A stretch of DNA of 50,867 nucleotides, from assembly GCA_964646925.1 (NCBI GenBank), contig CAZYIC010000002.1, positions 1 to 50,867 on the forward strand, in the 5' to 3' direction. The DNA comes from an uncultured Gammaproteobacteria bacterium (GTDB taxonomy: Bacteria; Patescibacteriota; Microgenomatia; Levybacterales; UBA12049). Below the pieces are notes generated by a model. It had not been told where the DNA came from. It did no database searches and saw nothing but the letters and a program-made list of their open reading frames with translations. Positions 1,575 through 48,308 of the stretch are shown here, one piece after another; within the stretch, counting starts at the first letter, position 1; each line of letters begins with the position of its first letter. The position numbers and the translations under genes are program-made.

Positions 1575-2035
1575 AAATCATTAAAGACGTAACGGAAAAA
1601 TTATTGAAGCTTTTGGATATCGATGGGGATTTTGAAATTTTGGAAACAAAAAATCCGGAGGCCGAAAGTGTAGACATAGTTTTAAATACAAAAGATACGG
1701 GAGTTGTAATTGGCTATCATGGCGACACTCTTGAGGGGCTACAGCTTATTCTTTCATTGTGTGTTGCCAGGAAGCTTGGGAGATTTGTCAGAATTTCAAT
1801 TGATGTTGGAGATTACAAAAAAAACAGAACAGAGTGGCTTAAAACATTGGCAACGGAAACAAAGGAAAGAGTTCTTGCAGAAAATAAAGAAATGGCGATT
1901 CCGGAATTAAAATCTTGGGAAAGAAGAATCGTTCACTTGTTGTTGGAAAAAGACAAAGAGGTTGTTTCGCAATCGCAAGGTGAAGGCCGCGACAGAGTTC
2001 TGGTTGTATCACCTAAGGATTTCAAAATTCACTGA
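1556..2035 (+). CDS. jag: Jag/KhpB-like RNA-binding protein (KH + R3H domains)
   Basis: 159 aa with a KH-like VVIGYHGDTLEGLQ and a C-terminal R3H-like ERRIVHLLL...GEGRDRVLVV. Follows yidC as in the conserved operon. Confidence 0.7.
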   Translation: MDKKEIKIIKDVTEKLLKLLDIDGDFEILETKNPEAESVDIVLNTKDTGVVIGYHGDTLEGLQLILSLCVARKLGRFVRISIDVGDYKKNRTEWLKTLATETKERVLAENKEMAIPELKSWERRIVHLLLEKDKEVVSQSQGEGRDRVLVVSPKDFKIH

Positions 2036-2151: not shown

Positions 2152-2580
2152 ATGACAAATAATCTTAATGTTTTTACAGACGGAGGAGCAAGGGGAAATC
2201 CCGGTCCTGCCGCAATCGGGGTTTATATCGAGAGCGAAATAAATAAAAAGCTTGCGGGATATGGAAAAAGAATTGGAATCACAACTAATAATGTTGCCGA
2301 GTACAAGGCAGTAATAGAAGCACTTGATTGGATCATTGAAAATAAAAAAACTTTTTCTAAAGATACCAAAATTAATTTTTTTCTTGACTCAAAATTAGTT
2401 TGTTCTCAGATAATCGGAGTTTTTAAAGTTAAAGATGCGAATCTTAGAGAGTTAATTTTTTGCGTAAGAGATAGAGAGGCGCAAATAAATTTCCCAATAT
2501 TTTACAAACACATTCCGCGGGAACAAAATACAAAAGCAGACGGATTTGTTAACGACGCGTTAGATCGGGAAACATTATGA
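2152..2580 (+). CDS. rnhA: ribonuclease HI family protein
   Basis: Motifs FTDGGARGNPGPAAIG, NNVAEYKAVIEAL, DSKLV and TKADGFVNDAL. I place the start at ATG 2152 rather than the TTG at 2116 used by the ORF track. Confidence 0.7.
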   Translation: MTNNLNVFTDGGARGNPGPAAIGVYIESEINKKLAGYGKRIGITTNNVAEYKAVIEALDWIIENKKTFSKDTKINFFLDSKLVCSQIIGVFKVKDANLRELIFCVRDREAQINFPIFYKHIPREQNTKADGFVNDALDRETL

Positions 2581-5186: not shown

Positions 5187-6488
5187 ATGGATAATGAAAA
5201 AATCGAGGCGGTTTATCCTATTTCGTTCAGGGAAAATGATGCTGCCAATTTAGGCAAGCATCTCAAAAGCAGGAATTCTGTTGTTCTAATTGGGATGAAA
5301 AGGGTTGGGATTAGTAATTTCTTAAGGTTTTTTCTTAATCATAAAGATATTGTTAAAACATATATCTCAGACGGAAATTCTCATCTTTTTGTTCCTGTTG
5401 ATCTTAATGATTTGGTTGAGCGGGAAGTTTTTCCATTCTGGATACTAACTTTAAAAAGAATATATGATGCTACGGAAAATTCAAACTTGAGTAAACAATC
5501 AAGGAAATATATAGAAGGGTTATTTTTGGACAGCATGCAATCAAAAGACACTTTTTTAACAATAGAAAGTGTTAAGAAAAGCTTAGCAAAAATTACGCAA
5601 GAGAAGGTCTTACCTACGATATTTTTTATAAGATTCGATAGGTTAAAAGAAATTATTACTCCTGAGTTGTTTGGAAATCTTCAGGGGTTAAAAGATGCTG
5701 CTAATCGAAAAGTTTCTTATGTGTTTACCAGCTTTAGGGGACTTACGGATCTTGCGCCAGACGTTTTTACAAAATCATCAATTTCTCTTTTTGCGGAGAA
5801 TCTGTACGTAAGGCCGGCTGAAAAAAAAGACACAAAAATTATTTTCGATACCTATAAAAATCGCTATAAACTTTCTTTATCTTTATCTTTGGAAGATTAT
5901 CTTTTTGATACTGTTGACGGCTATGTGCAGTATCTTCAATTGGCTTTAATTTCTCTTCATGAAGCAGGTGTGAGATTTAAAAACAAAGAAGATTTTTTTG
6001 ATTTTCTGTCAAAAGATGAAAGAATAACCCTTCAGTCCGAAGAGCTTTGGGAAAGTCTGGGGACTAAAGAACAAAATGTTTTGCTGGAGGTAGAAAAAGA
6101 ACAAAAAATAACTTCGGAAGAGAGAAAGGAAGCATCTTATTTATGGGATAGCGGATTTATTGTTCAAAACAAAAATATAGATACAGTCTTTAGTTCTCTT
6201 TTCAGTCATTATCTTAAGCAAAGACAAGTAAATAAGACAAATGGCGGGAGTGTTGAGCTAAGTAAAAAAGAAAATCTGCTTTTTAATTTTTTGAAAAGTA
6301 AGATAAGGGTAATTTGTGAAAGAGAAGAGATTATTCAGGCAGTCTGGCCGGAAGTTGAGGAATTTGGCGTATCCGATTGGGCAATAGATCGCTTAGTTGC
6401 CCGTTTAAGAGTTAAATTAAAGTTGCAAAATGCCAAATTCGAAATCCAAACAGTCAAAACCCGCGGCTATAAGATGGTGGAAATTTAG
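5187..6488 (+). CDS. ATPase-like domain fused to a C-terminal OmpR/PhoB-type winged-helix DNA-binding domain
   Basis: 433 aa. N-terminal VVLIGMKRVGISNF (P-loop-like, degenerate). C-terminal LSKKENLLFNFL...IDRLVARLRVKL...TVKTRGYKM is a typical trans_reg_C winged helix. Confidence 0.5.
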   Translation: MDNEKIEAVYPISFRENDAANLGKHLKSRNSVVLIGMKRVGISNFLRFFLNHKDIVKTYISDGNSHLFVPVDLNDLVEREVFPFWILTLKRIYDATENSNLSKQSRKYIEGLFLDSMQSKDTFLTIESVKKSLAKITQEKVLPTIFFIRFDRLKEIITPELFGNLQGLKDAANRKVSYVFTSFRGLTDLAPDVFTKSSISLFAENLYVRPAEKKDTKIIFDTYKNRYKLSLSLSLEDYLFDTVDGYVQYLQLALISLHEAGVRFKNKEDFFDFLSKDERITLQSEELWESLGTKEQNVLLEVEKEQKITSEERKEASYLWDSGFIVQNKNIDTVFSSLFSHYLKQRQVNKTNGGSVELSKKENLLFNFLKSKIRVICEREEIIQAVWPEVEEFGVSDWAIDRLVARLRVKLKLQNAKFEIQTVKTRGYKMVEI

Positions 6489-7157: not shown

Positions 7158-7266
7158 AGATGATTTAAGATTTAAGAAATAAGATTTATGAATAAATTTT
7201 GATCATGATCTGTCTATTCTTAAATCATAAATCGTAAATTTTAAATCTTTATGTTAAAATTAGTTA

Positions 7267-9432
7267 ATGGACAAAGTTTACAATCACAAAGATGTTGAGG
7301 AGAGGATTTATAAAGAATGGGAAGAGAAGGGGTATTTCAAAGCAAATCCAGAATCGAATAGAAAACCATATTCGCTTTTGATGCCGCCGCCAAACCTAAC
7401 GGGAGAATTGCATCTTGGTCACGCTATGCAGCATTCGGTTCTAGATGCTTTGGCTCGCTTTAAAAGAATGCAGGGATTTGATGTGTTGCTTTTGCCCGGA
7501 GTTGATCATGCCGGAATCCAGTTCGAAGCAACATTAAACAGGTTGCTTTCTAAGGAAGGGTTAACCAAGGGAAAACTGGGAAGAGAAAAATGGCTAGAAA
7601 GAGCTTGGCAATTCCGAGACGAAATTTATAAATCTGTCCATAATACATGGAAAATATTCGGGCTTTCTGCAGATTGGTCTAAGGAAGTATTTACGCTAGA
7701 GCCGAAAGTTCAAAAAGCAGTCTTTGGAGAGTTTAAAAGCTTTTGGGATAATGACTTAATTTATAAAGGTGCCTATATTGTTCAGTGGTGTCCCAAAGAT
7801 CAAACAGCAATAGAAGATTTGGAAATGGAGTATCAAGAAAAAAAAGAGAAGCTCTATTATGTTAAATACGAGATATTACAAGAGCCGGGAGAATATATTG
7901 TTATTGCAACCGCCAGACCAGAGACGATATTTGCGGATACTGGTATAGCAACATATTTAAAACATCCTAAATTTTCAAAATATATTGGAATGCAAGCCAT
8001 TAATCCATTAACACAAGGATATGTTAATGTTTTTGAAGATGAACGAGTCGATAAAAATTTTGGTACGGGAGCCTTAAAAATTACACCAGGACATGACATC
8101 TTGGACTATCAAATAGGAAAAGACAAAGGCTTACCGATGATGCATGCAATAGATAAAACAGGTCGAATGACAAATATTGCACAAATAATCTCTGCGAGCG
8201 GAGAATATTCGTTAGATTTAACGGGAATGAAGGTCTCTGAAGCAAGGCAGGCAGCATGTCAGGCATTGGAGAAGTTTGGTTCAATAGAAAGAGTGGAAGA
8301 ATATAGTCATTCGGTTCCCGTATGTGAGAGATGCAAGACTGTTGTTGAGCCCTTAATTTCCGAAGAGTGGTTTGTAAAAATGAGACCATTGGCAGATAAA
8401 GCTCTTAAAAATATTAACAAAATTAAATTTGCGCCTAAAAATTATGAAAAAATTATTGGAGATTGGTTGAAAGAAATTCATGATTGGTCTATTTCAAGAT
8501 CTCTTTGGTGGGGACACAGAATCCCTGTTTGGTATTGCGAGAAATGCAACCCCGCTCATCAGGTGGGGAAAAATAAGGACATGGCGGTATCAATGGAAGC
8601 GCCTAAGCAAAATTGTAAAACATGCAGCGGCAATTTGTGGGCGCAGGAAGAGCAGGTTCTTGATACGTGGTTTTCTTCTGGAATGTGGCCGCTTTCAACT
8701 TTGGGTTGGCCGGACAAAACAAGAGAGCTTGAAAAATATTATCCATGGAATTTCGAAATTACCGCACCCGAAATTAAATTCCTTTGGATTGCAAGAATGA
8801 TAATGTTAGGACTTTGGTTTAATGACAAAATTCCGTTTAAAAATATGTTTTTCCACGGCATGATAAGAGACAAGCAGGGTAGAAAATTCTCCAAATCTCT
8901 CGGGAACGGTATTGACCCCAATGAATTAAGGGATCAGTGGGGAACAGACGCAGTAAGGATGGCATTATATACATATGCCGTTCCGGGGAGAGATGCTCTT
9001 GTCTCAAGACAGTTAATGGATGAGAGATGCAAAAATTTTAGAAATTTTTCTACAAAGCTTAGAAACATCTCGAGATTCATTTTTAAACTAAAGCCGGAAA
9101 AAACAAATGAAAAGTCCGATTATTCACATTCGGAAGACTTGGAGATAATGCGGAAATTGAATAAGGCTATCGAAAAAATGAACAAAGGATTAAATAATTT
9201 CGAGCTGCACCTTGCGGGAGATGAAATATATTCCTTTATTTGGCATGAATTTGCAGATAAATATGTTGAGCAGTCAAAAAAGAGAAGAGCAGCTGCGCAG
9301 CCGGTTTTAGAAAAAGTCTTCAGACAAATTCTTATCATGCTCCATCCGCTTATGCCTTTTACCACAGAGGAGATTTATCAAACTCTGCCAAATCATAAAG
9401 AATCAATCATGATGGAGAAGTGGCCCAAATAA
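7267..9432 (+). CDS. valS: valyl-tRNA synthetase (short form, no C-terminal coiled coil)
   Basis: 721 aa with PPPNLTGELHLGHA (HIGH), PGVDHAGIQ and KFSKSLGN (KMSKS). Confidence 0.85.
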   Translation: MDKVYNHKDVEERIYKEWEEKGYFKANPESNRKPYSLLMPPPNLTGELHLGHAMQHSVLDALARFKRMQGFDVLLLPGVDHAGIQFEATLNRLLSKEGLTKGKLGREKWLERAWQFRDEIYKSVHNTWKIFGLSADWSKEVFTLEPKVQKAVFGEFKSFWDNDLIYKGAYIVQWCPKDQTAIEDLEMEYQEKKEKLYYVKYEILQEPGEYIVIATARPETIFADTGIATYLKHPKFSKYIGMQAINPLTQGYVNVFEDERVDKNFGTGALKITPGHDILDYQIGKDKGLPMMHAIDKTGRMTNIAQIISASGEYSLDLTGMKVSEARQAACQALEKFGSIERVEEYSHSVPVCERCKTVVEPLISEEWFVKMRPLADKALKNINKIKFAPKNYEKIIGDWLKEIHDWSISRSLWWGHRIPVWYCEKCNPAHQVGKNKDMAVSMEAPKQNCKTCSGNLWAQEEQVLDTWFSSGMWPLSTLGWPDKTRELEKYYPWNFEITAPEIKFLWIARMIMLGLWFNDKIPFKNMFFHGMIRDKQGRKFSKSLGNGIDPNELRDQWGTDAVRMALYTYAVPGRDALVSRQLMDERCKNFRNFSTKLRNISRFIFKLKPEKTNEKSDYSHSEDLEIMRKLNKAIEKMNKGLNNFELHLAGDEIYSFIWHEFADKYVEQSKKRRAAAQPVLEKVFRQILIMLHPLMPFTTEEIYQTLPNHKESIMMEKWPK

Positions 9433-9436
9433 ATTC

Positions 9437-9464
9437 AAAATTCAAAATGCAAAGTTCAAAATTA
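9437..9464. repeat. 28-bp AT-rich repeat, copy 1
   Basis: AAAATTCAAAATGCAAAGTTCAAAATTA is identical to 48281-48308. Starts 5 nt after the valS stop. Confidence 0.8.
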
Positions 9465-9512
9465 TCCAACTTAACTTTTCACTTTTCACTTTTAACTTTT
9501 AACTAATTTGAC

Positions 9513-10820: not shown

Positions 10821-11297
10821 ATGAAGATACTCGGAATTGATCCGGGATATGCCAGGGTTGGGTGGGCAACAATAACAAGTAACAATTCACAATTAACAGT
10901 TAACAATTATGGGTGCATAGAAACTTCTAAGAATACAGATTCTCAAGAGCGGTTAGTTGATGTTTATAAGCAAGTTTGCGCATTGATTAAAAAATATAAA
11001 CCTGACGCTTTAGCGATAGAAGAACTTTTTTTTACAAATAATGCCAAAACAGCTTTCAAAGTTGGGGAGGCAAGAGGAGTCATAACTTTGGCCGGAGCTA
11101 TCCAAAAAATCCCTGTTTTTTCATATACGCCTTTGCAGGTAAAAGTTGCAGTTACGGGGTACGGTAACGCAGACAAGACTCAGGTTGGGAGAATGATAAA
11201 GGTAATCCTTAAATTAAAAGAAATGCCAAAGTTAGATGACACAGTTGATGCAATCGCAGTCGCATTAACGCACGCCTTTACAAATAAATTTAAATAA
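10821..11297 (+). CDS. ruvC: crossover junction endodeoxyribonuclease RuvC
   Basis: MKILGIDPGYARVGWA... followed by ALAIEELFF and DAIAVALTHA motifs. I place the start at ATG 10821 rather than the ORF-track start at 10701. Confidence 0.8.
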   Translation: MKILGIDPGYARVGWATITSNNSQLTVNNYGCIETSKNTDSQERLVDVYKQVCALIKKYKPDALAIEELFFTNNAKTAFKVGEARGVITLAGAIQKIPVFSYTPLQVKVAVTGYGNADKTQVGRMIKVILKLKEMPKLDDTVDAIAVALTHAFTNKFK

Positions 11298-14866: not shown

Positions 14867-14932
14867 AAGGATATTTTACCTTATGGCTTTAAACTTGACA
14901 ATCAACTTATAGTATGCTAGTATTTCAGGATT

Positions 14933-15721
14933 ATGGTAATGGAGAGATTGGGTGCCGCAAGAAGGCTTCCTGAAAATCAAGATCCAACAAAACAATTTGC
15001 AATTGAACACGCAGAAAAAATGCTTGTTGATGCTGGCGTAAAAGATCCAGGAACGCTTGTTGCAACTTCCGTTGAAAAACCAACTCCAAAAATTGGAGAG
15101 CAATCACAAGATAAAGTAGGAAAAGTTGTTGTGGAATACAATTCTCAACCTTTGACTCCTGAACTTGTTAATAAAACTTGGCAAACTCTCTGGACAGAAT
15201 GGGGGAAAAGAGTTGGTCAGACATTTGAAATTCCACAGTGTGATCGAACCTCTGAAGAATTAGCTCAACTTAAAAAAGAAAATAAAGCAGTACTTCTTAT
15301 TCCCGACAATGTAGATTTGATTATGCTTGGCAAAATATTTCCCCAAATGCAGAGTCGGGCTGTATCAGAAGGAACAACGGTAACTGAATCAAGCAAAGGT
15401 GGAAGTATTGATACTGAAATGGATCTTGACTCTCCAAATAGAGATACAACTGAATTTCAAGCAAAGGATTTCCTTAAGCAGAATGGAAGAAACGGACAGA
15501 GATTAAGAACTTACATTATTGGCTCACAACTTAGCAAGTTATTAACTGGTCACTATTTTGACGAAAATGCATATTCTCGTTTGCCTGGTTCCCGTAATGA
15601 GGCCCGCATGGTGCTTGCTCACTTCCATTCGGATGGCGGCTTGCATGTCCGCTGGCATCTGGGTCCACTGCATCACGATCCGGACATGGGTTTTCGTTCC
15701 GAGGGAGTTAGAAAAGCTTAA
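14933..15721 (+). CDS. DGR variable (target) protein
   Basis: 262 aa. The C-terminal 40 aa (GSRNEARMVLAHFHSDGGLHVRWHLGPLHHDPDMGFRSE) are encoded by the VR. No obvious signal peptide. Confidence 0.85.
   Translation: MVMERLGAARRLPENQDPTKQFAIEHAEKMLVDAGVKDPGTLVATSVEKPTPKIGEQSQDKVGKVVVEYNSQPLTPELVNKTWQTLWTEWGKRVGQTFEIPQCDRTSEELAQLKKENKAVLLIPDNVDLIMLGKIFPQMQSRAVSEGTTVTESSKGGSIDTEMDLDSPNRDTTEFQAKDFLKQNGRNGQRLRTYIIGSQLSKLLTGHYFDENAYSRLPGSRNEARMVLAHFHSDGGLHVRWHLGPLHHDPDMGFRSEGVRKA
15587..15704 (+). repeat. DGR variable repeat (VR)
   Basis: 118 bp, 101/118 identical to 16020-16137. Every difference corresponds to an A in the other copy. Confidence 0.9.
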
Positions 15722-16019
15722 TCTTTTGATCCTTTGTCCTCTTTTGCATCTTTGAACTTTCCGTTTTTTTCTGATAGAGTAATAATTAAAGTAGGTTTAT
15801 GTTCCCAAGAGTATGCTTTTGAGACACCGAAATTATTGTTTTTCAAACATTTGCCGGAATTTCTATAAACTACGGTTTTAGAAAGAGTTGCAAAAGAAAA
15901 GCAAGATACTCCTTGTCTTTTGCTTGCGAAGGTCTCGCCACAGGCGAGTGCTTCCAAATAAAATACAATGTCTTGAGAAATCAGGCCGTGGTGAAAAAGA
16001 TGGCATAAGACAAAAAATA

Positions 16020-16137
16020 GGTTCCCGTAATGAGGACAACATGGTGAATGCTAACTTCAATTCGGATGGCAACTTGAATGTCAACTGGAATCTGAATCCA
16101 CAGAATCACGATCCGGACATGGGTTTTCGTTCCGAGG
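16020..16137 (+). repeat. DGR template repeat (TR)
   Basis: The non-coding copy. In the target frame it reads as 10 AAY (Asn) codons plus GAC and CAG at the 12 variable positions. The 3' 31 bp are invariant between TR and VR. Confidence 0.9.
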
Positions 16138-16155
16138 TAGAATCTTGCTTTTTCT

Positions 16156-16557
16156 TTATTGTTTTAATGATTTTCTCCATCCTCCAAGCATTCTGCCGAT
16201 TTCTTGGAGGAGTTGAATTAATTGGATATATTTTTTATTATCTAAAGCTTGTATATCTTTTGCAAGTCTTATCAGTATCCGAAGCATATCTAAGGACACT
16301 ATAGATTTTTCAATAAACGGTAATTTTTTCTCCTGGGAGTTCATTCCTGCTGTAATTGTTAGCTCAAAAATCGTGAGAGTAAGCCTGTCTATCTTTTGTC
16401 CTAGACTGTGTTGATCTTTCTTAGGGAAAAGTTTCAGATATTGGTACAATAATTTATAGAAGTCATATAGCTTTTGGAATAGCGGTATGTTAAACTGGTT
16501 ATCTGTTCTGTTCTGTTCTGTTCTGTTCTGTGAGGTGGGATTGTGATTTTGACTCAT
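16156..16557 (-). CDS. avd: Avd-like four-helix-bundle accessory protein
   Basis: Related to the 23S-IVS / four-helix-bundle family (LYDFYKLLYQYLKLFPKKDQHSLGQKIDRLTLTIFELT...RILIRLA). ATG at 16557; the ORF track extends to a TTG at 16572. On the opposite strand to TR and RT. Confidence 0.7.
   Translation of the reverse strand: MSQNHNPTSQNRTEQNRTDNQFNIPLFQKLYDFYKLLYQYLKLFPKKDQHSLGQKIDRLTLTIFELTITAGMNSQEKKLPFIEKSIVSLDMLRILIRLAKDIQALDNKKYIQLIQLLQEIGRMLGGWRKSLKQ
16503..16532. repeat. pentanucleotide repeat (CTGTT)5 plus one CTGTG unit
   Basis: Read directly from the sequence. Lies in avd codons 9-18 (QNRTEQNRT) and ends 1 nt before a GAGGTG Shine-Dalgarno-like box upstream of the RT start at GTG 16543. 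Confidence 0.95.
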
Positions 16558-17547
16558 ACACTCTATTCCCAAATTACCTCAATTGAGCATTTATTGCAAG
16601 CTTTCGATGAATTCAAAAAAGGCAAAAGAAGTAAAAAAGACGTGCAGTTTTTCGAAAGATTTTTAGAGGATAATCTTTTTGATTTGCATAGAAGGTTAGA
16701 AGCAAAAATCTATAAGCATTCTTCCTATACAGCTTTTAATATTTATGATCCTAAATTTCGCCATATTCATAAAGCAAAAGTTGCGGATAGAATAATGCAT
16801 CATGCCATAGTTTCAATAATTGAGCCAATTTTTGATAAAACATTTATCTATGATTCATATTCTTGCCGCAAAGAAAAGGGAACGCATAAAGCAGTTAAGA
16901 GATTATTTTATTTTGTAAGAAAAGTCAGCAGAAATTATACAGGAGATTGCTTTGCTCTGAAGCTTGATATTCGAAAATTCTTTGAAAATGTTGATCATCA
17001 GATTTTACTTAACCAGATAAAAAAGAGGATAGGCGATGATGACTTGCTATGGCTTCTTAAAAATATTTTGCAGAGTTTTTCAAAAGATAAAGGTATGCCT
17101 ATAGGAAATCTGACAAGTCAGGTGTTTGCAAATATTTACCTAAATGAATTGGATCAATTCATGAAACATGATCTAAAGATTAGATACTACCTTAGGTATT
17201 CAGATGACTTTGTTATTTTATCTCAAGACATTAATTATTTGAAAGGACTAATAAGGGGAATAGAAATATTTCTAAAAGAAAATTTGAAGCTATCTTTGCA
17301 TGAAGATAAGATCATAATCCGAAAATATACACAAGGAATTGATTTCTTAGGATATATTGTTCTGCCTCATTATGTTTTGCCGAGAACTAAGACGAAAAAG
17401 AGAATATTTAAGAAATTAAAGGAGAAAGTTGGTTCGGAAAATTTTGATCAGTCCTTGCAGTCATATTTAGGATACTTAGGATATGCGAATGCGTTTAGGC
17501 TTGCAGAGAAACTAAAGAATGAGATTTGGCTATGGAAAAAAGAATGA
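16543..17547 (+). CDS. DGR-type reverse transcriptase
   Basis: 334 aa with motif 4 PIGNLTSQVFANIYLNELD (the SQ signature of DGR RTs), the catalytic box RYSDDFVIL and ALKLDIRKFFENVDH. GTG start. Confidence 0.9.
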   Translation: MILTHTLYSQITSIEHLLQAFDEFKKGKRSKKDVQFFERFLEDNLFDLHRRLEAKIYKHSSYTAFNIYDPKFRHIHKAKVADRIMHHAIVSIIEPIFDKTFIYDSYSCRKEKGTHKAVKRLFYFVRKVSRNYTGDCFALKLDIRKFFENVDHQILLNQIKKRIGDDDLLWLLKNILQSFSKDKGMPIGNLTSQVFANIYLNELDQFMKHDLKIRYYLRYSDDFVILSQDINYLKGLIRGIEIFLKENLKLSLHEDKIIIRKYTQGIDFLGYIVLPHYVLPRTKTKKRIFKKLKEKVGSENFDQSLQSYLGYLGYANAFRLAEKLKNEIWLWKKE

Positions 17548-18149: not shown

Positions 18150-18252
18150 TTTTCAATTTGAAATTTAAAATTTGAAATGAAATCTAAATGTTTAAAAATT
18201 TAAGCTTGAAAATTCAATGAAAATTAAAAATTGAAAATTTCAAATTAAAGCT

Positions 18253-28808: not shown

Positions 28809-28986
28809 TGGTAGGCCCAGGGGGAATCGAACCCGCATCAGGTGTGCACCTACCCGCCGCGCCTGTGCGTCCGCTTGGATTTGGACCAAGGACATCTACT
28901 TTATAAGAGTAGCGCTCTACCACTGAGCTACGGACGCGCTTTGGCAGGCGGGTAAGACACCCGCTTTACCATTAAGCTATGGGTCT
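28809..28986 (-). tRNA. interrupted tRNA (possible anticodon UAC) whose two halves flank another tRNA
   Basis: 5' half: AGACCCA-TA-GCTT-AATGGTA-AAGC-G-GGTGT-CTTAC... 3' half: ...ACACC-TGAT-GCGGG-TTCGATT-CCCCC-TGGGCCT-A-CCA. The D and anticodon stems are perfect. The acceptor stem pairs at 6/7 and the T stem at 4/5. Confidence 0.4.
28866..28937 (-). tRNA. tRNA-Ile(UAU)-like
   Basis: 72-nt cloverleaf: GCGTCCG-TA-GCTC-AGTGGTA-GAGC-G-CTACT-CTTATAA-AGTAG-ATGTC-CTTGG-TCCAAAT-CCAAG-CGGACGC-A. All stems are perfect. The T-loop has C at position 55. No encoded CCA. Confidence 0.7.
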
Positions 28987-33627: not shown

Positions 33628-34951
33628 TGAACTAAAAAATAAAAAAATATTAATTGTAGGTAAAGGGATAGAAGGTAGAGCCGTATTTGCGTATTTGAGG
33701 CAACACCTTCCAGGTGTCAGGCTAGATATTGTTGATCAGAAAGATGGAGAGGATTATTTAGACCAACAAAAAAATTATGACATTGCAGTAAGGTCTCCGG
33801 GAGTAAAACCTGAGCTTTTAACAATTCCATATACAACCACAACAAATATTTTTTTGTCTAACGCCAAAGGCAAAGTAATTGGAATAACCGGAACAAAAGG
33901 AAAAAGCACTACCGCAACTCTTATTTATAAAATGTTAAAAGCTCAGGGTTTGGACGCATTTCTTGGTGGAAATATCGGACAATCACCTTTGGACTTTATA
34001 GATAGCCTAAATGATAATTCGTGGACAGTTTTGGAAATGTCATCCTATCAATTAAATGATTTGAAAATAAGCCCCGCCCGCCATGCAAGCCTGCAAGGCG
34101 TTGCGGGCGGGCCGCATATTGCCGTTATCCTAATGATAACTTCGGAACATTTGGATTATCACAAGACTCAGGAATCTTATATTGATGCGAAAAGAAATAT
34201 CCTTAGATTTCAAAAAACTTCGGATTTTGCAGTTATAAATAAAGATTATCCGGCAAGCCATGAATCGGATATTCATACGGTTGGTCAAGTTTTCAGAATA
34301 AGTCGCGAAAGAGAAGTTGGAGATGGGTGTTTCACAATTGGCGAAACAATTGAATTAAAAATTAAAAATGAAAAATTAAAAATTATTGATACTAATAAAA
34401 TTAAGCTTTTAGGTAAACATAATCTTGAGAATGTCTGCGCTGCATGCATGGCGGCTTATTTAGCGGGAGTTTCTATAAAAAATATTGTGAAAATTTTGGA
34501 AGAGTTTGGAGGACTTGAGCACAGACTGGAATATGTTGGAGAAAAAAATGGTGTCACTTTTTATAATGATTCTTTGGCAACAGTTCCTCAGGCTGCAATT
34601 GAGGCAATGGAGGCTTTGCCGGATGCGGAAACTTTAATTGCGGGGGGACATGATAGAGGATTGGATTATTCTATTCTTGGACAATATTTTAATAAGGGGC
34701 AAATTAAAACATTGATTTTGTTTTCCCCAACAGGAGAGCGGATTTGGAAAGCAATTTGTGATGCAACATCAGAAAGCTCAAGACCTGAGAAATTTGATGT
34801 AAAAAATATGGAACAAGCAGTAAGAATTGCGGCAGCGGAAACAACTCCCGGAAAAATCTGTTTGTTGTCTCCGGCGTCCGCATCTTTTGGCACGTTTAAA
34901 GACTACAAAGACCGCGGAGATCAATTTAAAAAGGAAGTAAGCAAATTATAA
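33617..34951 (+). CDS. murD: UDP-N-acetylmuramoylalanine--glutamate ligase (MurD family)
   Basis: 444 aa with GITGTKGKSTT, EMSSYQL, SEHLDYH and GKHNLEN. Confidence 0.85.
   Translation: MKIDELKNKKILIVGKGIEGRAVFAYLRQHLPGVRLDIVDQKDGEDYLDQQKNYDIAVRSPGVKPELLTIPYTTTTNIFLSNAKGKVIGITGTKGKSTTATLIYKMLKAQGLDAFLGGNIGQSPLDFIDSLNDNSWTVLEMSSYQLNDLKISPARHASLQGVAGGPHIAVILMITSEHLDYHKTQESYIDAKRNILRFQKTSDFAVINKDYPASHESDIHTVGQVFRISREREVGDGCFTIGETIELKIKNEKLKIIDTNKIKLLGKHNLENVCAACMAAYLAGVSIKNIVKILEEFGGLEHRLEYVGEKNGVTFYNDSLATVPQAAIEAMEALPDAETLIAGGHDRGLDYSILGQYFNKGQIKTLILFSPTGERIWKAICDATSESSRPEKFDVKNMEQAVRIAAAETTPGKICLLSPASASFGTFKDYKDRGDQFKKEVSKL
34071..34113. repeat. GC-rich palindromic element inserted in frame in murD
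   Basis: gccccgcccgccatgcaagcctgcaaggcgttgcgggcgggcc. Arms cccgcccgc / gcgggcggg. Encodes ARHASLQGVAGGP between SSYQL and the SEHLD motif. Confidence 0.75.
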
Positions 34952-46655: not shown

Positions 46656-48271
46656 TTTTAATCGTTGACTTCGGATCACAAACGACCCATTTAATTGGAA
46701 GAAGAATTAAAGAATTGGGGGCTGGAGTAAAAATTGTTTCTCCTGAAAATGTCGACCTCGCATGTCGACAGCCTCCCGACCTGCGAGGTCGGGGAGTGAA
46801 AGGGATAATCTTATCAGGAGGTCCTGCTTCTGTTTATGAAAAGAATGCTCCAACTATTGATAAGAAAATTTTTTCTTTAGGAATTCCGATTTTGGGCATT
46901 TGTTACGGTCTGCAATTGTGTTCCCGCCTGGAAGGTGGGAAGGTAATTCCTGGGAAAAAAGAGTACGGACCTGCGCAATTGAAAATTGAAAATTTAAAAT
47001 TAAAAATTACACAAAACTTGTCCGAAAGTTTTGTGGTTTGGATGTCGCATGGCGACGAAGTAATTAAGTTACCGAATGGATTTGAAGTTTTTGGCTCAAC
47101 AGAACATGTGCCGTTTGCTTTTGTCGGGGATTTGAAAAGAAATATTTACGGGGTTCAATTTCACCCGGAAGTAGAACACACGGAGTTTGGTCTACAAGTA
47201 CTCAAAAATTTTCTTTCCGTTTGTCATCCTGAATTTATTTCAGGATCTAAACATCGGAATAAAAACGAGATGCTGAAATCCTCCAGGAGGACTTTCCTCA
47301 GCGGAGGTGGCGCAGTTCAGCATGACACGGATAAGATTACAGAGAACGTTAGGAGTATTGTTGGGGAAAGAGATTGTGTGATTGGGGCGGTGTCCGGAGG
47401 GGTAGATTCAACAGTTGCTTCTGTTTTGACTGCCAAAGCAATAGGGAAGAGATTTATTCCTATTTACGTTGATAATGGACTTATGAGAAAAGGAACAGAA
47501 GAACATGTGGTTAAAATATTTAAGCGAATCGGCATTAAACCTATAGTTGTTAATGCGGCAGGGGAGATGTTAAAGCGTCTGCAAAAAATTACGGATAGTG
47601 AGCAAAAAAGAAAAATTATCGGCAATTTTTACATCGAAATTTTTGAGCGGGAAATGAAAAAATTATTGGCAAAAAAGATTTCTGTTAAGTTTTTGTTGCA
47701 GGGCACGATTTATTCGGATGTGATTGAAAGTCAGGGCACCAAGTATGCAGCCAAAATCAAAAGCCATCATAATGTTGGAGGTCTTCCTAAAAAAATGAAA
47801 TTAAAACTTTTGGAACCGGTAAGAAATTTTTATAAAGATGAAGTTAGAGAAATCGGAAGGAAGTTAGGATTGCCGGAAGAATTTGTTAACAAACAGCCTT
47901 TTCCCGGGCCAGGATATGCAGTTCGAATTAGAGGAGAAGTTACTAAAAAAAGACTGGCAATGGAGAAAAAAGCGGATGAGATCGTGTTATTTGAGCTTGG
48001 AAAAGCGGGAATTCTGCCGAATGTTTTTCTGTCTTTTCCGGTTATGACTGATGCTTATTCAACAGCAGTCAAGGGAGACGGACGGCAGTTTGGGGAAGTT
48101 GTAGCTCTTCGTATCATAGAATCCAAAGACATCATGACTTCTACTTGGAGTAAGATACCATACGGCATCTTACAAAAAATTTCCTCAAGAATTGTTAATG
48201 AAATTCCCGGAGTTTCCCGCGTTGTCTACGACATCACCACCAAACCCCCCGCGACAATGGAATGGGAATAA
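46652..48271 (+). CDS. guaA: GMP synthase (glutamine-hydrolysing)
   Basis: 539 aa with a GATase domain (GICYGLQL, WMSHGD, QFHPE), the PP-loop AVSGGVDS and a C-terminal dimerisation domain ending TMEWE. Confidence 0.9.
   Translation: MILIVDFGSQTTHLIGRRIKELGAGVKIVSPENVDLACRQPPDLRGRGVKGIILSGGPASVYEKNAPTIDKKIFSLGIPILGICYGLQLCSRLEGGKVIPGKKEYGPAQLKIENLKLKITQNLSESFVVWMSHGDEVIKLPNGFEVFGSTEHVPFAFVGDLKRNIYGVQFHPEVEHTEFGLQVLKNFLSVCHPEFISGSKHRNKNEMLKSSRRTFLSGGGAVQHDTDKITENVRSIVGERDCVIGAVSGGVDSTVASVLTAKAIGKRFIPIYVDNGLMRKGTEEHVVKIFKRIGIKPIVVNAAGEMLKRLQKITDSEQKRKIIGNFYIEIFEREMKKLLAKKISVKFLLQGTIYSDVIESQGTKYAAKIKSHHNVGGLPKKMKLKLLEPVRNFYKDEVREIGRKLGLPEEFVNKQPFPGPGYAVRIRGEVTKKRLAMEKKADEIVLFELGKAGILPNVFLSFPVMTDAYSTAVKGDGRQFGEVVALRIIESKDIMTSTWSKIPYGILQKISSRIVNEIPGVSRVVYDITTKPPATMEWE
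46751..46794. repeat. GC-rich palindromic element in frame in guaA (GATase domain)
   Basis: CGACCTCGCA (46753-46762) pairs with TGCGAGGTCG (46782-46791). There is also a nested hairpin cccgacct-gcg-aggtcggg (46775-46793). Encodes DLACRQPPDLRGRG. Confidence 0.75.
47223..47326. repeat. ~104-nt MITE-like element in frame between the guaA domains
   Basis: Termini GTCATCCTGAA / TTCAGCATGAC match at 10/11 as inverted repeats. Internal hairpin atcctgaa-tttatt-tcaggat. Encodes CHPEFISGSKHRNKNEMLKSSRRTFLSGGGAVQHD. Confidence 0.7.
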
Positions 48272-48280
48272 ACGAAATTA

Positions 48281-48308
48281 AAAATTCAAAATGCAAAGTT
48301 CAAAATTA
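48281..48308. repeat. 28-bp AT-rich repeat, copy 2
   Basis: Identical to 9437-9464. Starts 10 nt after the guaA stop. Confidence 0.8.

Follow-up and report, generated by a model that had tools for sequence, protein, structure and literature searches.

Positions 1 to 50,867 of contig CAZYIC010000002.1 (the whole 50,867-nucleotide (nt) stretch is called the window hereafter) contain, in this order, a target gene whose 3′ end is a variable region (VR), a template repeat (TR), an avd gene on the opposite strand and a reverse transcriptase (RT) gene, i.e., the parts of a diversity-generating retroelement (DGR) (Table 1). The GC content of the window is ~37%, and ruvA and ruvB follow the cassette. 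The nearest named relatives of the RT and of Avd are found in genomes or bins of Daviesbacteria, Levybacteria, Woesebacteria and the 'Microgenomates group', and the element appears to be chromosomal and to belong to the Candidate Phyla Radiation (CPR)/Patescibacteria clade, with a host that is probably a member of the Microgenomates group. We are confident that the region is a complete and apparently intact CPR/Patescibacteria DGR. Inside its avd gene lies a simple-sequence repeat, and the possible role of this repeat as a switch is the second subject of this analysis.

Table 1. Features of the element, other repeats of the window, and corresponding features of related loci (L-numbers; positions there are those of the locus)
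Feature	Position	Strand	Description
Promoter-like site	14895..14923	+	TTGACA-17-TAGTAT with TG; consensus scan, 10/12 matches
Target (variable protein) gene	14933..15721	+	262 aa; no Pfam match; no transmembrane segment; VR at 3′ end
VR	15587..15704	+	118 bp; codons 219-257 of the 262-codon target open reading frame (ORF); 17 TR-adenine mismatches
Initiation of mutagenic homing (IMH)-like VR 3′ segment	15672..15704	+	33 bp identical to TR end; partly GC-rich (CCGGACATGGG); 6 unsubstituted TR-adenine positions
TR	16020..16137	+	33 adenines; 11 AAY codons in target frame
TAGAATCTTGC motif	16138..16148	+	directly 3′ of TR, before avd stop codon; conserved in six related cassettes
avd	16156..16557	-	133 aa + stop; antisense to TR and RT; between TR and RT
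(TCTGT)6 repeat	16502..16531		perfect; between avd ATG and Avd body; on plus strand directly upstream of RT ribosome-binding site GAGGTGG
DGR reverse transcriptase	16543..17547	+	334 aa; GTG start after GAGGTGG; PF00078
7-nt-period repeats	7162-7247, 9431-9504, 10868-10909, 18155-18249, 34353-34385, 46977-47008, 48275-48307
L001 VR/TR			16 adenine-site mismatches, 0 others
L005 VR/TR			16 adenine-site mismatches, 1 other
L014 VR/TR			21 adenine-site mismatches, 0 others
L017 VR/TR			16 adenine-site mismatches, 1 other
L019 VR/TR			19 adenine-site mismatches, 1 other
L021-L024 VR/TR			12-18 adenine-site mismatches, 0-2 others
L001/L002 avd repeat	L001 7746-7758		G13
L005 avd repeat	1729-1742		(TG)7
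L014 avd repeat	6395-6419		(TCCTG)5
L017/L018 avd repeat	L017 2685-2720		(TCTG)9
L019/L020 avd repeat	L019 2927-2971		(CCTGT)9
L023 (more distant) avd repeat	2441-2451		G11

An ungapped base-by-base comparison of VR with TR (118 bp each) gave 101 identities and 17 mismatches, and all 17 mismatches were located at adenines of TR (to C in nine cases, to G in six and to T in two). This result confirmed the coordinates, the lengths, the identity and the adenine-only differences that an earlier note on this DNA had proposed for the pair; every substitution listed there was correct, and the pairwise alignment that it recommended as a check showed zero mismatches at non-adenine TR positions. With adenine at 33 of the 118 nt of TR, the hypergeometric probability that 17 randomly placed mismatches all land on TR adenines is 8.4e-12. 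In the frame of the target gene (14933-15721), all 17 mismatches fall on codon position 1 or 2, and 12 codons are altered in VR (residues 224, 225, 228, 230, 232, 236, 238, 240, 242, 244, 246 and 247). The figure of 12 diversifiable residues given previously is thus the number of codons currently changed, but the TR has 21 codons with A at position 1 or 2, 11 of which are AAY. The coding capacity of TR is ~10^18.7 sequences over the full set and ~10^12.9 from the 11 AAY codons alone, and a stop codon in the target frame cannot be reached by any adenine substitution in TR. No further VR was found in the window when both strands were scanned with changes at TR adenines tolerated.

The last mismatch between VR and TR is at 15671. 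The 3′ end of VR was previously described as an invariant stretch of 31 bp; its identity to TR holds, but the identical stretch is 33 bp long. The homology stops at 15704 in VR and at 16137 in TR, where the two copies diverge right after GAGG, the following base being G in VR and T in TR. IMH and IMH* that differ only downstream is a situation also given by Wu et al. 2018 (PMC5758913), and by analogy with the IMH of Bordetella phage BPP-1 the identical segment (15672-15704) would have an IMH-like role. TR sits within a 434-bp stretch from the target stop codon to the avd stop codon. A 138-codon ORF with a TTG start (15888-16304, plus strand) spans TR, and it is in the target frame because TR copies the end of the target gene; it is without family match and is probably not a gene, though automatic annotation could call one.

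When the product of the RT gene was compared with PDB sequences, the top match was chain 8ub7_A (E 3e-44), and the best group II intron RT followed with E 3e-20. The chain was confirmed as Brt of BPP-1 by a search with Brt from AY029185. Direct comparison of the RT with Brt gave 33% identity over 311 aa, in which IGNLTSQVFANIY of the RT aligned with IGSLTSQLFANVY of Brt, and YSDD with YMDD. In addition, the RT matched phrog_1423 (E 1.5e-109), and homologs of 334 aa spanned 100% of the query. The earlier claim of a DGR-type RT is therefore well founded as far as the sequence goes, because IGNLTSQ and YSDD are present and the closest solved relative is Brt; with the [I/L/V]GxxxSQ motif 4 and the YxDD box, the RT bears the sequence marks of the DGR clade. 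The RT also gave sub-threshold matches to retron and DRT (defense-associated reverse transcriptase) models and scored 147.6 bits with the NCBIfam group II intron RT model, below its cut-off of 300. Such matches would be expected to some extent if TR were a decaying duplicate of the target 3′ end and the RT an unrelated group II intron or retron-type enzyme. We regard this explanation as extremely improbable, since the E-value of Brt is better by 24 orders of magnitude, random placement of mismatches would give the adenine-only pattern with P ~8e-12, an Avd gene is present, an Rfam scan of the region found no group II intron and no other Rfam RNA, and at least nine other loci have a cassette with the same four parts.

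The identity of avd was supported by several models. Its product scored 82.1 bits against the NCBIfam equivalog NF033474 (cut-off 80), matched the Pfam family PF22296 (bAvd) with E 1.6e-20 and phrog_3206, the PHROG 'Avd protein of DGR', and was 31% identical to Bbp7/Avd of BPP-1 (E 3e-7); the product recorded for the contig has the same length of 133 aa. The presence of an Avd gene, which the earlier note had pointed out, was thus established by NF033474, PF22296 and phrog_3206, but the gene runs on the minus strand, against the direction of the other parts. Its stop codon lies at a distance of 18 nt from the TR end; at its other end, the first 15 nt of avd, with the ATG, overlap the start of the RT gene.

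Paul et al. 2017 were reportedly the first to survey the DGRs of CPR and DPANN organisms. In the window, TR, avd and RT are arranged and oriented as in architecture B3, TR-(avd)-RT, to which 90% of CPR DGRs were found to belong (Wu et al. 2018, PMC5758913), and because the layout is this reported arrangement, the element is another member of a known CPR DGR type. When the IMG/VR loci that were fetched with the RT (n = 80) were inspected, the layout followed RT similarity. In L021-L024, with RT identity of 47-54%, avd is antisense and abuts the RT gene; in L025 (52% over a contig-truncated RT), an antisense avd is located ~2 kb downstream of the RT fragment; and in loci at 36-43% RT identity avd is upstream on the same strand. 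The same layout with ~120-bp VR/TR pairs was present in nine other loci (L001, L005, L014, L017, L019 and L021-L024), and there too the mismatches are nearly confined to adenine sites (Table 1). Direct observation covers the anatomy of the element, its adenine-specific pattern, the families to which RT and Avd belong, and the fact that the cassette recurs elsewhere.

The target sequence was without significant match in Pfam, NCBIfam, PDB sequences, PHROGs and PADLOC, and its maximum 19-residue hydropathy was 1.35, with no hydrophobic segment. Its family comprised 69 homologs in a word-indexed search and 547 profile matches among 50%-identity representatives, mostly of 210-290 aa, and scans of genomes and metagenomes with the family gave 1 and 5 loci, respectively. 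The model DUF7359 was matched below threshold in 10 of 56 members (best E 0.0026), with 12-14 bits against a cut-off of 27.5 in the members inspected in a per-member Pfam scan, and was treated as uninformative. The small size of the target, its lack of a visible signal peptide and its unassignable N-terminus, which had been put forward as open features, all stand. According to Roux et al. 2021 (PMC8144416), CPR targets typically have neither membrane domains nor any others that can be recognised, so that these features are the norm for the clade. The candidate promoter-like site upstream (Table 1) ends 9 nt before the target ATG, and the target mRNA would consequently be leaderless or nearly so; the site is no more than a candidate, because the count of such sites in the region was not above the shuffled expectation. 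The database gene call for the target begins two codons later, at 14939.

In an alignment of 56 members, the C-terminal consensus of the target family was SRLPGSRxxGxxVxAxFxSxGxLxVxxxLxxxxxxPxLGGRSEGVKKA. Column entropy exceeded 3 bits at 222, 228, 230, 232, 236, 238, 240, 242, 244, 246, 247, 249 and 251, and every one of these columns corresponds to a window TR codon with A at position 1 or 2, mostly AAY. The scaffold residues in between (A229, F231, G235, L237, V239 and L243) had an entropy of less than 1.4 bits. At the level of sequence, this pattern is evidence across the whole family for DGR-driven variation. The confident AlphaFold2 model of the full-length target (pLDDT 91.4; 94.7 in a model of residues 95-262) consists of N-terminal helices, a disordered linker (41-54), two further helices and then an alpha/beta domain. 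The variable residues in this model alternate along strands 225-231 and 237-240 and occupy the following loop, and because of this alternation they are predicted to lie on one face of a beta-hairpin and loop. The recoded face of this cytoplasmic-looking protein is presumably a ligand-binding surface.

Three larger relatives of 440-733 aa (P0372, P0382 and P0436), whose composition suggests high GC, have the target scaffold at the N-terminus, which in P0436 is preceded by an alpha/beta hydrolase domain. Their VR-equivalent loop is longer and not diversified-looking, and is followed by a conserved C-terminal domain of ~230 residues. Since these relatives carry a version that does not look diversified, the scaffold may be older than its capture by the DGR, and the large proteins may be non-DGR relatives.

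Some of the results weigh against the reading of the region as an intact DGR. TR with 160 nt downstream showed no RNA structure above background (minimum free energy z = 0.27), and no GC-rich inverted repeat or cruciform was found after VR within ~100 nt of 15704, an element that is reported for only 34% of DGRs and is not universal. Foldseek found no match with E < 0.25 in PDB, searched with the full-length and the 95-262 models, or in BFVD, searched with the full-length model. In addition, L016, a Logan contig of a 99% identical strain from a related run, has the same residues at 12/12 diversified codons, so that the consensus VR appears stable between two samples. The present activity of the element is a point that we infer.

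Identity at these codons is also what would be expected of a relic or a recently silenced DGR, in which the VR/TR pattern records past activity and diversification has ended. Relatives of the target are often found without an RT or with remnants: L015 (1461-1814) no longer has its RT and shows 12 mismatches outside adenine sites, L003 (5128-5211) retains an RT remnant of only 28 aa, L006 (4599-4661) and L010 (2267-2329) retain a 21-aa avd remnant, and in L004 and L012 the target is alone with no cassette. Because such remnants or absences often accompany target relatives, loss of the DGR seems to be common in this lineage. Against this background of decay, VR and TR of the window differ over their 118 bp at no site other than TR adenines, both RT and avd have kept their full length along with the catalytic and family motifs, and the avd repeat described below is in its in-frame state. 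Judged from these intact genes and the clean VR/TR pair, the cassette of the window looks functional, and we consider it unlikely to be a relic. The VR of L016 differs from that of the window only by A-to-G at 15684, which is a TR-adenine site in the 'invariant' 33-bp end; this is slight evidence for a stable VR and equally slight evidence for change at an adenine site. Comparison of L016 2577-2757 with window 16085-16148 showed that the contig switches within TR, at ~16085, to the TR end and avd of another related element, and for this reason L016 is probably a chimeric contig assembled across the repeat. The comparison with L016, which shows no re-diversification, was therefore set aside as a measure of activity. 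Several further contigs stop at the VR, TR or avd repeat.

The top weak Foldseek match was the C-terminal domain of Bdellovibrio Bd2740 (8oks_A), with E 0.25 and probability 0.75. Other weak matches with moderate TM-scores included the mannose-receptor CRD-4 (carbohydrate-recognition domain 4), the TSG-6 Link module, Mtd and the FGE-like (formylglycine-generating enzyme-like) EgtB; many unrelated proteins, such as TRAP1/Hsp90 and PARP, ranked alongside with low TM-scores. Comparison of the target with Mtd by hhalign was negative, and the target had no match to Pfam C-type lectin (CLec) or FGE families. The weak structural matches hint at a very divergent C-type-lectin-like scaffold in the predicted model.

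The element has the same four parts as the DGR of BPP-1 (mtd-avd-TR-brt), the characterised prototype. The two share the IGxLTSQxFAN and YxDD motifs, with RT and Avd sequences 33% and 31% identical, and a VR of ~120-134 bp at the target 3′ end, with adenine-only differences and AAY-rich codons; the invariant 3′ end is reminiscent of the IMH. They differ in that avd of BPP-1 is upstream of TR on the same strand, whereas that of the window is downstream on the opposite strand, so that the 405 nt from TR to RT are almost all antisense avd and not a dedicated spacer. The element of the window also lies in a cellular, non-phage context next to ruvA and ruvB, its target is without detectable sequence similarity to Mtd, and no GC-rich inverted repeat follows its VR. 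By analogy with BPP-1, a TR-containing RNA would be transcribed from the plus strand, also running antisense through avd; the RT-Avd complex would reverse-transcribe the TR RNA, misincorporating opposite template adenines; and the cDNA would replace VR, with the 3′ boundary set by the invariant IMH-like end. Up to 21 target codons would be recoded in this way.

Directly 3′ of TR, the 11-nt TAGAATCTTGC is kept at the equivalent position in the window, L001, L005, L014, L015 and L016, although the gap that separates TR from the avd stop codon is short and non-coding. When this region was aligned, positions 40-41 and 44-48 of the alignment showed no variation. An extra stem-loop is inserted right after it in L001, L015 and L016. 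This motif may be a piece of the RNA that is recognised by RT-Avd. A 14-nt inverted repeat at 16180-16211 was also considered as an RNA element and rejected; it is not kept in L001 and is located inside conserved avd coding sequence.

We now turn to the pentanucleotide repeat (TCTGT)6 inside avd. Its minus-strand product is QNRTEQNRT, which is located ahead of the part of Avd that matches the family profiles. With a TRF (Tandem Repeats Finder) score of 60 and 100% matches, it is the strongest perfect short-unit repeat in the window and its sole tetra- or pentanucleotide repeat with at least four perfect copies. The canonical starts of avd, ATG at 16557 or TTG at 16572, are both before the repeat, and in none of the repeat-bearing cassettes is there a canonical start between the repeat and the Avd body. 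When one or two units were added or removed in silico, avd shrank to a 62-aa ORF.

A repeat was found at the equivalent site in 6/6 independent close cassettes that span the avd/RT junction, the window counted, although its unit differs among them (Table 1). Among the more distant cassettes with the same layout, it is present in one of four (L023) and not in L021, L022 and L024, and no repeat near the RT start was found in any of the ~70 IMG/VR loci with avd on the same strand (L026-L100). The background of such repeats was 29 in the ~598 kb of fetched DNA (0.049 per kb), and under this background the probability that six of six cassettes carry a repeat within ~100 nt is on the order of 1e-14. 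Unit lengths of 1, 2, 4 and 5 nt occur, but none of 3 or 6; non-triplet units would be expected if frameshifting rather than the encoded peptide were selected. As read from the consensus assemblies, avd is in frame in the window, L017 and L019, and is without an in-frame start in L001, L005 and L023. Each of the latter three is one unit off: a single added unit gives an Avd of 125-133 aa, and the remaining avd and RT sequences are intact.

Among the best 120 Avd homologs, repeat-encoded leaders were present in 33, consisting of (HT)2-4 (20 homologs), GQDRT/QTDR/QNRT (7) or PPP+ (6); repeat remnants were present in 14, and 37 had no repeat. A further 32 were shortened gene calls that start inside helix 1 (MYQYLKLFPKK...), as a gene caller would give for an out-of-frame allele, although some of them may be contig ends. 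P0193 has an Avd body 96% identical to that of the window and 15 nt (three pentamer units) fewer. The breaks of two Logan contigs, L020 and L101, fall within the repeat, where a k-mer assembler would break regardless of length variation; L101 starts within the repeat and was therefore uninformative about the copy number.

Contingency loci are known from pentanucleotide CTCTT repeats in the leader-peptide coding regions of Neisseria opa genes and from tetranucleotide repeats in Haemophilus influenzae, and they mostly govern surface structures or restriction-modification systems of host-adapted pathogens. The repeat of the window resembles them in that it is perfect, non-triplet and located in the 5′ coding region of avd downstream of the start, so that one unit shifts the frame, and in that related avd alleles exist in both in-frame and out-of-frame states. 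It differs from them in that the gated gene would belong to an environmental CPR bacterium and encode a factor accessory to a targeted mutator, and switching is suggested here by the repeat pattern. We put at about even the chance that avd is a contingency locus in this Microgenomates-group CPR DGR clade, in which slipped-strand mispairing toggles Avd and, with it, adenine mutagenesis. Slippage of the repeat would be a reversible and heritable way of turning translation of Avd, and hence target mutagenesis, on or off, and the (TCTGT)6 copy of the window would be in the ON frame.

It is also quite possible, with a chance somewhat short of even, that the repeat plays no part in regulation; the N-terminal leader would be dispensable, and the repeat in it a neutral tract prone to slippage. 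Sequencing or assembly errors, to which the G13, G11 and dinucleotide tracts are prone in short-read assemblies, would then account for the out-of-frame states, or Avd would be produced from a non-canonical start codon or through slippage during transcription or on the ribosome. A leader of ~16-20 aa without a repeat in L021, L022 and L024 (three of the four distant relatives with the same layout) and short repeat-free leaders in many Avd homologs are in accordance with a dispensable leader. A neutral tract accounts less well for the presence of a repeat at the exact site in 6/6 close cassettes against a background of 0.049 per kb, for units that are never of 3 or 6 nt, and for the fact that none of these cassettes offers a canonical start after the repeat and ahead of the Avd body. 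Furthermore, a single added unit restores full-length Avd in the three out-of-frame cassettes, whose other avd and RT sequences are intact.

In basic anatomy, and in having a small target without recognisable domain or membrane segment, the element is identical to the CPR/DPANN DGRs described as B3 (Wu et al. 2018, PMC5758913) and as DGR clade 2 (Roux et al. 2021, PMC8144416). What sets it apart is the avd repeat, of which these two accounts make no mention. A full-text literature search joining DGRs with phase variation or simple-sequence repeats returned nothing relevant, and as a feature the avd repeat appears to be undescribed.

Elsewhere in the window, ARAGORN predicted a tRNA-Ile with anticodon TAT (28865-28937, minus strand). 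This tRNA is uncommon in bacteria, where AUA is usually decoded by a modified CAT anticodon. AT-rich tandem repeats with a period of 7 nt (e.g., AAATTCA, TTAACTT and AATTGAA; 4-6 copies) occur at seven sites (Table 1), and at least three of these, around 9431-9504, 18155-18249 and 48275-48307, lie between long ORFs.

As a DGR, the element is one more well-preserved case in a CPR class that has been catalogued in thousands, and changes little. Its target family is a test case for the question, raised by Roux et al. 2021 (PMC8144416), of what the small domain-less CPR targets, apparently not membrane proteins, bind. The repeat in avd bears on a different question. If avd is indeed a contingency locus, a repeat that switches frame by one unit in an essential accessory gene would be a simple and testable answer, for this clade, to the question of control; to our knowledge, little has been established about the means by which cells hold DGR mutagenesis in check or set its timing. 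The repeat would then constitute a stochastic switch governing a targeted mutator.

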